Source: a virus
IMG/VR virus record: IMGVR_UViG_3300045971_000277
Coordinates: 31,181-95,180 of that record
Length of the DNA: 64,000 nt
Direction: 5' to 3' (one strand)
The notes below the pieces were generated by a model, which was not told the origin of the DNA, made no database searches, and saw only the letters and a list, made by a program, of their open reading frames with translations. A program made the position numbers and the translations under genes. Below are positions 2,853 to 32,146 of the stretch, piece after piece; position 1 is the first letter of the stretch, and each line of letters opens with the position of its first letter.

Positions 2853-3272
2853 ATGCGAAACATTGACAATCTGACATTTTTCATTTTTGTCGCGTTCTGG
2901 CCCGTTTATCTCATATGGGAGATCGCGCTGTTTGTAATGCGCGGCAAGGGCATGAATGTTGATCTGATTAGCATGGAAGCACGCGATCGTGGATACCAAT
3001 TCAACACACTAGTCGTGCTTTGGTTCGCCCTGCCTGTCCATTTCTGGGTTAACTGGTATCGACCAGCTATGCCTAATATGCTGTGGGCCACCATCGTCTT
3101 CTGGGTCTTCATCGCCGCCACCCTAACATTCGACCTTATCCTACTCAACCGTGGTATTATGTACGACCAGCTGCCACAGGCACTACAGATCTATCGGTGG
3201 CCATTAACACAGGCCGTGCTGGGCGTACTGGCCGCGTATTTCCTGTTTCCCCAGAGAGGCGTGCTACCGTAG
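2853..3272 (+). CDS. Small multi-pass membrane protein of unknown function
   Basis: 139 aa with about four hydrophobic helices; TATAAT directly upstream (2842-2847). Confidence 0.65.
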   Translation: MRNIDNLTFFIFVAFWPVYLIWEIALFVMRGKGMNVDLISMEARDRGYQFNTLVVLWFALPVHFWVNWYRPAMPNMLWATIVFWVFIAATLTFDLILLNRGIMYDQLPQALQIYRWPLTQAVLGVLAAYFLFPQRGVLP

Positions 3273-3967
3273 TGGAACGTGAAGCTAGGTTGATCATATG
3301 TGACGGGTGTGGCGAAGAAAAGCCGCACGCCGGTAAAGGCCTATGTCGGGGTTGCTACTCCGAAGCCAGTGGTAAGGTGCGCGCAATGGAAGGCGCGTCC
3401 CAGCATAAAATTAAGCGGGACGTCGACAGTGGGCGTCCACTATGCCGGTGGTGTAAGCAGCCAGTGCCGAGACGCAAGCGGACGTTCTGTGGTGAAGATT
3501 GCATCCATGAATGGCGAATCCGGACGAGTCCACAGTACGTACGGATGAAGGTATTCGAACGCGACGGCGGCGTCTGTCTCAAGTGCGGCATCAGCACGCC
3601 CAAGATGGAACTCGTATTATCCGACTTATTCTACCATCAGCGTGATGCGTGGGAACTGATGTGGGGCATGCTACATGCGAACGGCTATAGCCAAAATCGC
3701 AAGAACGGGCTATGGGACGCCGACCATATCCAAGCTGTAACGGAGGGCGGAGGCGCATGCGGCCTAGATAACTACCGCACCCTCTGTATCCCATGCCACA
3801 AAGATGAGACACGAAAGCTGCATAAGCGAATGGCGGCGGCCCGCCGCGCCGGTCAAGACCCACACAGCGTCCCGCACGGTGTTGAATGGTCTGCGGATGA
3901 AGTTGAGGTAGCTAAGCAACGCATGTCAAAAATCGTTGCGGCACTCGGCTCAGGCTATTCCGGTTAA
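3272..3967 (+). CDS. HNH endonuclease with N-terminal zinc fingers
   Basis: Start reassigned to GTG 3272, overlapping the upstream TAG. CDGC...CRGC and CRWC...C zinc motifs; VFERDGGVCLKCG...WDADHIQAVTEGGGACGLDNYRTLCIPCH HNH core. Confidence 0.85.
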   Translation: MEREARLIICDGCGEEKPHAGKGLCRGCYSEASGKVRAMEGASQHKIKRDVDSGRPLCRWCKQPVPRRKRTFCGEDCIHEWRIRTSPQYVRMKVFERDGGVCLKCGISTPKMELVLSDLFYHQRDAWELMWGMLHANGYSQNRKNGLWDADHIQAVTEGGGACGLDNYRTLCIPCHKDETRKLHKRMAAARRAGQDPHSVPHGVEWSADEVEVAKQRMSKIVAALGSGYSG

Positions 3968-4012
3968 CGCAGTCTGTTACGCCCGGTATTAGTCGGCACG
4001 AATGGAGTCACT

Positions 4013-5257
4013 ATGGCAATGAAGGTAACGAAGTGGACCCCGCATCGTATAGAAGAGTTGACGAAGGTTCTGAGCGAAACCGGATCTCTCACAGAGACAG
4101 CCAAGCGGGTCGGTGAGTCACAGTCGGCCGTTCGTAGCGCGCTGACTAACAACGGCGTTAATATCAAGGCCATTATCCAGGCAAAGTCGATTGACACCGG
4201 GGCAATTGACCGTGAGAACAAGATCATCGAATTAGAGGATACAGTAAAGCAGCTGCGGGCCAAGTTAGCCGGGGCCGAAGAAGACGGATGGGACGAGAAG
4301 CGTGTGATTGAGCGCATCATGGACCTATCAAGTGACGCTCCGGAGCCACCCGGCTGGACCCTAAAGAACCGCGCATCCAAGCATAGTGCAGGCGTACCAT
4401 CGCTATTTGCCTCCGATTGGCACTGGGGCGAAGTGGTCGACCCAAATCAGGTCGCCGGGCTCAATCAGTATAATCTATCAATTGCGCATGAGCGGTCAAA
4501 GCTATTCGTCGCCAATACGATCGACATCCTGACGAACCATGTTGTCAACTACGATCGCAAGGGCCTAGTCATGCCGGTCGGCGGTGACATGTTCAGCGGC
4601 GACATTCATGAAGAGTTGATGGCGACGAACGAGACCGAACTAGGTCCGGCCTTCGTCGACCTAGAAGGCGTTTTCATCTGGATGATCGAGGAGTTGCTCA
4701 AGAATGTAGAGCAGCTATTCATCCCGTGGGTCACAGGCAACCACGGGCGGTGGACCCACAAGATCCGCGCAAAGGGTCGCGCCTTCACCAGCTTCGACTG
4801 GCTACTGGGTCAGGTCCTACGCAAGCATTTCGAGAAGGACCCACGCGTTACCTTTATGATCGGTAGCGGCAGCGACGTCCGCTTCAAGATCTTTGATTAT
4901 CGATACATGCTGAGCCACGGTGACCAGTTCCGTGGCGGCGACGGTATGGTAGGTGCGCTTGGTCCGATCATCCGTGGCGACCACCGTAAGCGTGGCCGGG
5001 CCAGTCAGGTTGGTCAGGACTATGATACCCTTATTATCGGCCACTGGCACCAGCTGATTCAGTTACGCCGCGTCATCGTCAATGGATCGGCTAAGGGATA
5101 CTGTGAGTACGCTTACTCCAATAACTTCCCATTTGAGCGACCGCAGCAGGCCTTATACTTTACACATCCTCAGCATGGTATAACGATTTCAATGCCTGTC
5201 ATCTTGGATCGTGGCGGGCCGAAGGAGGCTGAAAAGTGGGTCAGTTGGAATAAATAA
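4013..5257 (+). CDS. Calcineurin-like metallophosphoesterase with N-terminal HTH and coiled coil
   Basis: Ordered motifs SDWHWG, GGDMFSG, TGNHGR, SHGD, IGHWH; N-terminal HTH-like SLTETAKRVGESQSAVRSAL. Confidence 0.85.
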   Translation: MAMKVTKWTPHRIEELTKVLSETGSLTETAKRVGESQSAVRSALTNNGVNIKAIIQAKSIDTGAIDRENKIIELEDTVKQLRAKLAGAEEDGWDEKRVIERIMDLSSDAPEPPGWTLKNRASKHSAGVPSLFASDWHWGEVVDPNQVAGLNQYNLSIAHERSKLFVANTIDILTNHVVNYDRKGLVMPVGGDMFSGDIHEELMATNETELGPAFVDLEGVFIWMIEELLKNVEQLFIPWVTGNHGRWTHKIRAKGRAFTSFDWLLGQVLRKHFEKDPRVTFMIGSGSDVRFKIFDYRYMLSHGDQFRGGDGMVGALGPIIRGDHRKRGRASQVGQDYDTLIIGHWHQLIQLRRVIVNGSAKGYCEYAYSNNFPFERPQQALYFTHPQHGITISMPVILDRGGPKEAEKWVSWNK

Positions 5258-5285
5258 TTGCTACGACGCTGTTCCGCGCTGTTAT

Positions 5286-5350
5286 TTCGGTCGCACCACC
5301 ACAGTCTTCGGACTAGGCCCGACGTCACCGAAGGTATCATGGGGATACTT
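5286..5350 (+). ncRNA. Candidate structured RNA leader upstream of the PLMP-domain gene
   Basis: AGTC-TTCG-GACT cUUCGg hairpin (5303-5314) enclosed by TTCGGT/ACCGAA (5286-5291/5327-5332), then GTATC-ATGGG-GATAC hairpin (5334-5348), in a 128-nt intergenic gap. Confidence 0.4.
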
Positions 5351-5385
5351 AGGAGATTAGGGGTTTACAGGGTAGGCGGCGTTGA

Positions 5386-6315
5386 GTGCCCCGGCCAATT
5401 TCAGATCAGAACGTCACGGTTCTTGATGATCAACAAAGATTTCTCGAATATACCCACCCAGCAGTTGCGCGTAAGCTCCTAAAGGAAGGCGCAGCCGTTG
5501 TATGGTCCCGTGTACCGTTCGCTATTAAGTTGACCAGATCAGTCCCGCATCCATCCTATCAACGGAGAGCAGAAATGGAAGTTACAAGCTATACACAGTA
5601 TTTCCGCGAAGAGAAGGAAATCTACGTCCAGAACGTGTCGAACGCACAGGTGTCGGTTGCATTCGAAGTCGCCACCGGACACGTCGAGTCGCTGCTGTTC
5701 CCGAACAAGCGTGACCCGCTTAACCTGACCCAGTACTTCCCATTCGGCGTTATCAAGAACTCCATGGACTTCCGCAAGATGCTGACGCGGCGTCCGGCGG
5801 CGCTCACGCTGCTGAGCGAGGCTGAGTATCAGGCGTTCTATTCGAATAAGGCGAAGGAAGAGGGGCTATTCGTCAAGGACGGCAAGAAGCAGGTGCCGGA
5901 CGTCGAGGCCGCTATCAATCTGGCAGAAGAGGAGCGTCGGGCGTACCAGAATAAGGCCCCACTGCCCAATGCCCGTCCGTCTGAGCCCCTCCATGACGTG
6001 GTCCAGGATGACCCGCACTTCGGTGGCAAGAAGGAAGTCCGGGCGCACGAGCAGCTGCAGGTTGAGGACGTCGTCAACCCCCGCATCCTTCACCTCTGCA
6101 ATCAGGTTAAGTCCGAACTGACTGATCAGGAGAAGATGTCGGCGAATGAGCTACTGGGTGAGCTTAAGTCGCTCCGTGCCGACCTCAAGATGGATGACTT
6201 CGAATACATCAGGGCTCATGGCTGGTACCAGTCGGTCAAGAAGTGGGCTAAGGCCGCCATGGCCGATGTAGCCGAAAAGGAAGGCGTGGACGACGTAGCT
6301 GACTCCCGCCTATAG
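5386..6315 (+). CDS. Phage protein with N-terminal RRXRR/PLMP-like domain; probable second in-frame start at ATG 5575
   Basis: VTVLDDQQRFLEYTHPAVARKLLKEGAAVVWSRVPFAIKLT parallels the IscB PLMP consensus (VFVLD...PLMP.HPARARKLLK.GKA.V....PFTI.L). GGAG precedes ATG 5575 and codon usage changes there. Confidence 0.75.
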   Translation: MPRPISDQNVTVLDDQQRFLEYTHPAVARKLLKEGAAVVWSRVPFAIKLTRSVPHPSYQRRAEMEVTSYTQYFREEKEIYVQNVSNAQVSVAFEVATGHVESLLFPNKRDPLNLTQYFPFGVIKNSMDFRKMLTRRPAALTLLSEAEYQAFYSNKAKEEGLFVKDGKKQVPDVEAAINLAEEERRAYQNKAPLPNARPSEPLHDVVQDDPHFGGKKEVRAHEQLQVEDVVNPRILHLCNQVKSELTDQEKMSANELLGELKSLRADLKMDDFEYIRAHGWYQSVKKWAKAAMADVAEKEGVDDVADSRL

Positions 6316-30960: not shown

Positions 30961-32146
30961 TATCATTATAGCGTTAGTCTGGTCCACTGCGATGGCGGCT
31001 CCGACTGGCATTGGAGCGAACCAGATTCGTACGGCGCAGCCTAATGCGGTAGACATGAGTGGAGTCGCAGTGGCGGAAGGTAACTCACTGTCGGCTTCAC
31101 GCGCGGATCACACGCACCCAATCACCGGCATTCTGCAGCCTGCCCATGGTGGCACAGGTGTGAGCAACCTCAATTGTCCAGCTGGACAAGTGCTGACGTC
31201 AAATGGCTCAGTGTTTTCGTGTGTGGCTGCCGCAATATCCGCATACGCTAGGGCGTCAGTACCTGCGTGTGATGCAACTACGGCTGCACAAGAGATCCGT
31301 GTACACGATGCTGGCCAGTCTGATGAAACGTGGGTATGCATAAGGCGGGATACGACCTACGCTTGGTCGACGTATTCGATGGCTGCAAATTCAAATGCTG
31401 CTGTAATGGCTGACGGTACGTTGATAGCTACGGTAGGTGTAGTATGGACCTCTGCTCCATCAGGAGATGCCTGCGTTAACCAGCTCACGAGCGTAAGTAC
31501 ATTAGGCGCAGCTCACTCAGGTGAGTGCGTTAATCCACGTACTGACGTTTATGGCACTTACACGTGGCGTAGCACCGCTATGTGGATGGCTGTGGGAGCT
31601 ACAAATAAGTTTTACGGCGCTGAGATCAGACTAACAGGGTCAATCCCAGTTACATTTGGGCCAGCCTCTACGCCTGATAACTATCAGTGCGGCGCTGGCG
31701 GCGGTGAAGATGTATGCAATTATGACACACCGTATGATGTGGTGGGATACAGCAGAATGTATCCGTGCGCACTAAACTCTACTACATGTTGGATTGGTGC
31801 CACTACTTACACTGGATGGCGTCACTATAGCGCGGTCAATACTGTATCGTCTAGAAAACTAATCATAAAGAGTAGCCCTATGACTGCTAGCGGGACGGTA
31901 ATTTGGTCCAGTGCGGCAGGCGTTAACGCTATCACCTGGAATAAGGGCTGGAACTTGATACGTGCTGATAACGTTAATCCACCGGCAGGTATTAACGCCG
32001 ACGACTACTATTGGGTGGTGATTAAGCGCTTCGATTTCGGTCCTTGGTATAGCTGCACTGGACCGATATGCTTACCTGCTAATAATGACAGTGAAGCATT
32101 GGTGAGCCATCCAGCCTCATGGGTAGTGACAAAGGTTCTTAGGTGA
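30944..32146 (+). CDS. Secreted fibre-like protein, paralogue A
   Basis: MRIIVSIIIALVWSTAMA|APTG; fibre motifs AEGNSLSASRADHTH and HGGTG; 12 Cys. Confidence 0.7.
   Translation: MRIIVSIIIALVWSTAMAAPTGIGANQIRTAQPNAVDMSGVAVAEGNSLSASRADHTHPITGILQPAHGGTGVSNLNCPAGQVLTSNGSVFSCVAAAISAYARASVPACDATTAAQEIRVHDAGQSDETWVCIRRDTTYAWSTYSMAANSNAAVMADGTLIATVGVVWTSAPSGDACVNQLTSVSTLGAAHSGECVNPRTDVYGTYTWRSTAMWMAVGATNKFYGAEIRLTGSIPVTFGPASTPDNYQCGAGGGEDVCNYDTPYDVVGYSRMYPCALNSTTCWIGATTYTGWRHYSAVNTVSSRKLIIKSSPMTASGTVIWSSAAGVNAITWNKGWNLIRADNVNPPAGINADDYYWVVIKRFDFGPWYSCTGPICLPANNDSEALVSHPASWVVTKVLR

Follow-up and report, generated by a model that had tools for sequence, protein, structure and literature searches.

A PLMP domain outside IscB/IsrB nucleases at the start of a giant uncultured phage gene

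The PLMP domain has so far been described only within the IscB, IsrB and IshB proteins, where it grips both the final guide-RNA hairpins and the RuvC core. Outside them, a remote likeness to the IF3 N-domain is on record. A gene in one window of viral DNA (64,000 nucleotides, positions 31,181 to 95,180 of IMG/VR record IMGVR_UViG_3300045971_000277) raised the question of what such a domain does where no nuclease follows it. A preliminary description had read the gene as an IscB-type PLMP (RRXRR) domain fused in frame to a phage morphogenesis protein, with an internal restart giving a second product that omits the domain. The analysis reported here shows that PLMP has a life outside the IscB/IsrB nucleases: the long product of this gene of a giant uncultured phage starts with a PLMP domain. 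No description of PLMP joined to a non-nuclease was found in a literature search (the founding OMEGA paper lay outside its scope). The gene offers a natural, simple system for asking what PLMP does alone.

Gene anatomy and identity of the PLMP domain

The features of the gene and of its surroundings are specified in Table 1. The open reading frame encodes 309 amino acids on the plus strand (5386-6315): its GTG start lies right after an in-frame TGA, and the frame is closed by a TAG codon (6313-6315). The difference in codon usage that had been noticed across the junction of the two parts proved real, with a step in GC3 at position 5575: GC3 was 0.43 in 5386-5574 and 0.75 in 5575-6312, with values of 0.81-0.84 just past 5575.

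Table 1. Coordinates of the PLMP gene, its parts and its neighbours (window positions; the last three rows give positions in the named phage genomes)
Feature	Position	Strand	Basis or remark
HNH endonuclease gene	3083-3967	+	PHROG match; ORF separate from the PLMP gene
Calcineurin-type exonuclease gene, 414 aa, phrog_284, N-terminal HTH	4013-5257	+	PHROG match
Leader, 128 nt, non-coding, separating the long-form start from the inserted exonuclease gene	5258..5385	+	
GTG, start of the putative long isoform	5386..5388	+	Sole canonical start covering the whole PLMP domain
PLMP domain with four strands and a helix, residues 10-59	5413..5562	+	Pfam PF14239, AF2 model, structural and phmmer matches
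Basic linker, residues 51-63	5536..5574	+	pLDDT 63-65; sequence and length vary among relatives
Internal Shine-Dalgarno (SD) motif GGAGAG	5564..5569	+	Sequence read; GGAG 5564-5567 lies 7 nt before ATG 5575
Internal ATG, start of the putative short isoform, 246 aa	5575..5577	+	Linker Met kept in relatives
C-terminal module phrog_17686, alpha/beta core and C-terminal helical bundle	5575..6315	+	PHROG match, AF2 model
Shared gene string, PaBG (L022)	112347-114233		
Shared gene string, Lu11 (L028)	102551-104874		
Shared gene string, Dickeya JA11 (L029)	176443-181123		

In the window, the HNH endonuclease and exonuclease genes (3083-5257) separate the capsid region from the PLMP gene. The same position is empty in relatives, and the pair has the appearance of a mobile element inserted within the head module. 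P0001, the database gene call for the window (226 aa, 100% identical), seems to take a GTG within the C-terminal module as its start and leaves out both the PLMP domain and ATG 5575. Automatic gene calling, with this 226-aa product as its result, overlooked the putative two-isoform gene.

For identification of the N-terminal domain, the RRXRR profile that the preliminary description had named was searched, and the match lay above its curated threshold: PF14239 (Pfam cut-off 25 bits) matched residues 10-59 with 33.7 bits when the whole ORF was used and with 36.9 bits when the 63-aa fragment was used (E 4e-8 to 4e-9). Of the 174 profile positions only 1-50 were matched; in IscB these correspond to PLMP, ahead of RuvC. 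The AF2 model, calculated with 70 homologues as input, had a mean pLDDT of 89 overall, and its N-terminal part was predicted as strands 10-13, 19-23, 37-41 and 46-49 with a helix at 25-34 (pLDDT 92-97), followed by a low-confidence linker.

Solved PLMP domains of OMEGA nucleases were at the top of the structural search of this model against representatives, with matches covering model residues 7-61 only. The best VIA-align match was TbaIscB (Z 8.6, rmsd 1.4 over 50 residues, 42% identity), followed by HfmIscB (Z 8.5), OrufIscB (Z 7.9), DtIsrB (Z 7.7) and 9liq (Z 7.3); across these five domains the rmsd was 1.3-2.6 over 49-53 residues. Foldseek concurred on IscB/IsrB PLMP and placed N-domains of IF3 lower in its list, consistent with the published likeness of PLMP to IF3-N (PMC9581776). 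With phmmer against the PDB, the peptide quoted in the preliminary description aligned to TbaIscB residues 497-547 (E 4e-4), and the patterns T-H-P-A-x-A-R-x-L-L-K and P-F-x-I-K-L were preserved in the alignment. A sequence-profile search of the PDB returned only a designed repeat protein (E 0.017), and the 63-aa fragment, used as query for longer proteins, returned closest relatives only.

The domain is a true member of the PLMP family by sequence and fold, though without the name-giving motif: P-L-M-P is replaced by F-L-E-Y in the window and by FLEY, ILSY or FVGY in relatives. It shares with the PLMP of IscB and IsrB the N-terminal place, the four-strand-plus-helix fold, 26-42% identity to the solved domains and the extended pattern T-H-P-A-x-A-R-x-L-L-K-x-G-x-A ... 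P-F-x-I-K-L. Unlike those nucleases, the window protein has no RuvC, bridge helix, HNH or TI part, has no recognisable omega RNA or transposon context, and carries a phage protein as partner. Pfam and fold searches of the ORF found neither RuvC nor HNH after PLMP, and no Pfam family was found for the 246-aa C-terminal part. In the absence of RuvC, HNH and TI parts the protein is not an IscB or IsrB, and a bona fide PLMP standing in frame without a nuclease was confirmed as first described.

Joining of PLMP to something other than RuvC has a parallel in phages. The fragment was also matched by phrog_2214, annotated as 'HNH endonuclease' (E 2e-5), and IshB reportedly consists of PLMP and HNH only. 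IshB and the phage PLMP-HNH endonucleases of phrog_2214 likewise carry PLMP on a non-RuvC part, but they are nucleases, and the partner in the present gene has no nuclease signature.

Conservation of the fusion and of the internal start

Homologues were collected at three scales. A word-indexed search gave a set of 70 proteins, among which PF14239 was matched in 31: about 30 were near 300 aa, carried PF14239 and extended down to 43% identity, and about 35 were near 245 aa, lacked PF14239 and began with a Met aligned with M64. Scans of viral and metagenome contigs gave 95 loci, and PLMP was present in the same open frame in 75 of their 97 C-domain ORFs; about 17 loci were truly without it, a stop codon standing 10-24 codons upstream and the whole locus being free of PLMP. 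When 1.84 billion cluster representatives were searched exhaustively with a profile, 297 clusters matched the C-terminal module at E<=1e-3. Among the best 150 of these 297 clusters (50% identity), 77 were PLMP-positive, 4 had a divergent PLMP-like extension and 53 were short, and no N-terminal domain other than PLMP was seen. Whether homologues of the 5575-6315 protein carry the domain is answered by these figures: about 80 of the best 150 clusters do. For the closest relatives (P0002-P0004, ~70% identity), a back-translated pattern scan of viral contigs found no DNA.

For 48 distinct fused genes, the PLMP part was at least as conserved as the C-terminal part (mean pairwise identity 48.5% versus 42.2%), and pN/pS was 0.33 for PLMP versus 0.42 for the C-domain, pS being saturated. 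These comparisons of related sequences show that purifying selection acts on the PLMP part; the segment 5386-5574 is conserved in related phages, with an intact frame.

The same data bear on an alternative in which 5386-5574 is a decaying 5' remnant of an IscB, an IshB or an HNH homing endonuclease, in frame by chance and either untranslated or without function. HNH and homing endonuclease genes are inserted nearby, phrog_2214 matches the fragment (E 2e-5) and the GC3 of the segment is low, all of which would suit a remnant. Such an origin is nevertheless extremely improbable, given the intact frame, the domain kept by purifying selection across some 80 clusters whose whole-protein identity falls as low as 27%, and the confident AF2 model. 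It was rejected on the PLMP conservation data across fused relatives.

The linker of the fused relatives contained an ATG in all 56 distinct proteins (linker ~17 aa, background Met frequency 2.35%). At 5-13 nt upstream of it, 46 of 50 relatives had an SD motif of at least 4 nt; the background rate in the same genes was 21.9% over all codons and 18.4% for the remaining internal Mets. These counts come from related sequences, so that their independence is overstated. The motif was written by differing residues (RRAE, IRRRIV, IRRKT, DPREAN, DPREDK and NGDT, with the pairs RR, RE, GD and GE), which argues that the SD is maintained at the nucleotide level. The comparison shows a conserved site with the sequence features of an internal ribosome-binding site, and PLMP-less relatives begin at the position aligned with the internal Met of the window.

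Evidence on the upstream start points the same way. About 15 of 55 relatives, the window among them, have only GTG or TTG as upstream start, often with a weak SD. The regression of GC3 on genome GC had a slope of 2.42 (r 0.96) in the C-part versus 1.28 in PLMP, and mean GC3 in GC-rich phages was 0.82 in the C-part versus 0.63 in PLMP. The behaviour of GC3 and the weaker upstream start are compatible with, and do not prove, a heavily translated short form with a rarely translated extension. As far as sequence can tell, the long and short isoforms are very likely both made, and the internal restart proposed at the outset, yielding forms with and without PLMP, is strongly supported by an SD and ATG conserved well above background.

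An arrangement in which only the long fused protein is made was also weighed; the linker Met and the SD-like purines would then be by-products of an Arg/Glu-rich linker or a relic of the time before the fusion. The AGR and GAR codons of a basic/acidic linker do naturally yield GGAG-like strings. We nonetheless consider this quite improbable, given that the SD-ATG spacing is kept despite differing residues, that the motif is found in 92% of relatives against a background of 22%, that the ATG is present in 56/56 while synonymous sites are saturated, and that codon bias steps at the junction.

Nested in-frame genes with internal initiation are familiar in phages: lambda C/Nu3, T7 gene 4A/4B and phiX174 A/A*. 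The present gene resembles them in having one frame, two putative starts, the internal one with a conserved SD and ATG, and a shared C-terminus. What sets it apart is the nature of the added N-terminal segment, a domain of RNA-binding type that comes from a nuclease of mobile elements. The family provides a clean comparative case of a conserved internal start that would give two isoforms in uncultured phages.

The C-terminal module and its neighbourhood

The preliminary description had called the C-terminal protein a phage morphogenesis protein. The module matched phrog_17686 (E 8.6e-6, positions 21-221 of 225), a PHROG of unknown function, the profile of which matched PaBG gp154 at 2.7e-80. 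The AF2 model of the module had a mean pLDDT of 88, and Foldseek against BFVD retrieved uncharacterised proteins of PaBG, Motura and BcepSaruman (E 5e-9 to 1e-4, with the PaBG protein at E 5e-9). When the C-part was searched alone, no PDB fold was retrieved by Foldseek at E<=0.001, the matches from VIA-align were all generic helical bundles (Z<=7) at residues 162-246 that scarcely covered the alpha/beta core, and the ESM Atlas gave unnamed viral clusters only. Sub-threshold matches to PF24408 (wHTH-Calcineurin_assc) fell on the C-terminal helices in 11 of 70 members (best E 0.0016; for example 14.6 bits versus a cut-off of 27, at the helices encoded by window 6050-6300 and in homologues). These scores were too low for the family to be assigned; the C-terminal helical bundle may contain a winged-helix-like unit.

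The position of the gene depends on the clade. In the clade of the window, the PLMP gene of relatives lies directly 3' of the major head protein gene and connector-like genes come next. The C-terminal 246 aa have homologues, by profile and predicted fold, in three cultured jumbo phages: PaBG gp154, Lu11 gp139 and Dickeya JA11 gp207. None of the three carries PLMP, and their genes belong to a resolvase/primase cluster and do not follow the capsid gene. In these three phages, the PLMP-less homologue belongs to an operon in the order RuvC-like resolvase (phrog_18317), phrog_19006, phrog_17686 (the shared gene strings of Table 1), which adjoins a primase and a Cas4-type exonuclease. Foldseek also hinted at a partial resemblance of fold between phrog_17686 and both the phrog_19006-type proteins and JA11 gp206.

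No structural-protein match for the C-terminal module was found in Pfam, PHROG or the PDB, and no virion data on gp154 were found in the PaBG paper. The name 'morphogenesis protein' was not supported: it is only a positional guess, for a phrog_17686 protein without a solved-fold match whose homologue sits in the resolvase/primase cluster in PaBG, Lu11 and JA11.

The RuvC neighbourhood is intriguing, since PLMP docks on RuvC in IscB. PLMP could accordingly serve as a protein-docking module through which a nuclease, or some other partner acting in trans, is brought to the C-terminal module, for example for branch resolution during DNA packaging. The extensive contacts of IsrB PLMP with RuvC I and TI (PMC9581776) would fit such a role, as would the operon shared by the PLMP-less homologue with phrog_18317 and phrog_19006 in PaBG, Lu11 and JA11. 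Searches with PF02075, phrog_18317, phrog_159 and phrog_19006, however, found none of them in G001 and G002, which are complete, or in the window's own genome (G000), which is half-complete; Rctr197k alone has a distant RuvC-like ORF, ~110 kb away. With the RuvC-touching motif of PLMP also not retained, and with the covarying leader RNA described below left unexplained, docking in trans is judged improbable.

Leaders of the relatives, the proposed role of PLMP and two individual loci

When the 100 nt preceding the long-form start were aligned among relatives, tandem hairpins with obvious compensatory changes were found. The leader of relatives is ~110-130 nt long with up to six helices. In one large subclade (group A), RNAalifold predicted 26 pairs, 19 of them with compensatory double changes, and one stem encloses the AUG. 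A covariance model of the proximal part (R1) matched 25 loci, once in each and always directly upstream of the PLMP ORF (e.g. L006:5852-5994), and exactly one copy was found in each of the complete genomes G001 and G003. In the model-fitted R1 alignment, 88.2% of cells pair versus 71.7% after shuffling, with double changes in 11 of 14 pairs; the covariation score was 0.482, whereas shuffles reached 0.198 and slid controls did not exceed 0.144.

A second model (R2) matched L009:5312-5376 and 11 further loci. Neither R1 nor R2 had a match in the 11 PLMP-less loci searched. Group B differs in sequence and has a similar layout, supported by covariation: its first hairpin, whose 3' strand reads GGGAGG, precedes a short one with 3-4 nt in the loop. 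By eye, groups C and D are arranged alike, the short hairpin lying between an SD-like motif and the start. Against shuffles, leaders of fused genes were the more stably folded, with a median z of -1.27, those of short forms having 0.16 (Mann-Whitney p 0.0014, ignoring kinship). A diverse phage family (~80 clusters at 50% identity) uses PLMP without a nuclease, and many of its members have covarying RNA before the gene.

The leader of the window itself (5258-5385) folded no better than shuffles (z 0.03 and -0.29 in two folds) and was matched by neither R1 nor R2, even without filters. Its upstream neighbour is the inserted exonuclease gene, not a capsid gene, and the ancestral leader may have been displaced, or have diverged past recognition. 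No Rfam family matched the window leader or the leaders of 7 relatives' loci. As regards an omega RNA, what relatives have are covarying leaders with neither an Rfam match nor a recognisable omega RNA.

The PLMP of IsrB binds SL7/SL8, the tandem hairpins at the end of the omega RNA, within which the SD of isrB itself lies (PMC9581776). OgeuIscB likewise uses PLMP to recognise terminal hairpins, for the most part independently of their sequence (PMC9640706). The relatives of the window share with IscB/IsrB tandem hairpins just upstream of the ORF; this same geometry (hairpins, ribosome-binding site, ORF with PLMP first) is the main ground for favouring binding of an RNA in cis.

The reading towards which we lean, with a confidence just short of even, is that of a two-isoform gene carrying a domesticated PLMP on its long form, with PLMP presumed to bind the leader of its own mRNA. 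One gene would give two nested in-frame proteins. The short product, initiated at the SD and ATG of position 5575, would be the ancestral and probably more abundant phrog_17686 protein, and the long product, initiated at the weaker GTG, would add the domesticated PLMP through a flexible basic linker. PLMP would retain its job in IscB/IsrB, namely clamping tandem RNA hairpins just upstream of its own coding sequence, so that the long isoform would bind the structured leader of its own mRNA. Such binding would limit synthesis of the long form and set the long-to-short ratio, or would tether that RNA. In the window, the conserved leader would have been displaced, or would have diverged, after insertion of the upstream endonuclease genes.

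The proposed logic is that of T4 RegA, gp32 and gp43, phage RNA-binding proteins with translational autoregulation: by analogy, a protein would act on a structured operator at its own ribosome-binding site, although the folds are unrelated. The earlier idea of RNA binding or autoregulation gains indirect support: the covarying leader RNA of relatives makes it plausible by analogy, but the element is undetectable in the window.

Several observations count against binding of the leader. The window leader has no conserved element and is not unusually stable; the P-L-M-P motif, which touches both RuvC and the omega RNA in OgeuIscB, is F-L-E-Y here; and leader sequence differs between subclades, with R1 and R2 together covering only part of the PLMP-positive loci. 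The leader could also be a plain 5' UTR structure whose brake on translation involves no protein.

PLMP might instead bind another nucleic acid (phage DNA, another phage transcript or host RNA) and bring some of the C-terminal module to it. Recognition of hairpins by IscB PLMP mainly without sequence specificity (PMC9640706) would allow this, and the window, without a conserved leader, has an intact PLMP with 61-63% identity to the nearest fetched relatives. There is no candidate target, and in relatives the leader present as one copy per genome beside the gene points to a partner in cis; binding elsewhere therefore seems unlikely.

A broader proposal goes beyond binding of the leader by the long isoform, and we rate it as rather unlikely: PLMP and a cognate structured RNA would form a self-contained module outside OMEGA nucleases, which in a large giant-phage clade would serve the mRNA of a two-isoform gene as translational operator or tether. 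Either the module would be part of an IscB/IsrB locus that was domesticated (the 3' omega RNA hairpins together with the first domain), or it would be a still extant relative of whatever gave IscB its PLMP. The family could reveal the origin of the contact between protein and RNA at the 3' end of omega RNAs.

Two individual loci were distinguished by the state of their PLMP. In L065 (3990-4300 of a 188-kb contig), PLMP is a separate 66-aa ORF ending in TAG, and the C-terminal module follows 13 codons after this TAG, in the same frame and with its own SD and ATG; the locus may be either a natural split or a case of TAG read-through or recoding. In L047 (45-270), the PLMP coding part has decayed through an internal deletion and a stop codon, and the locus retains the R1 leader (57.8 bits) and the internal SD and ATG. 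That the leader and the internal start are still intact suggests a recent loss of PLMP in L047. The natural short forms, the split L065 and the decayed PLMP of L047 show that the C-terminal module works alone.
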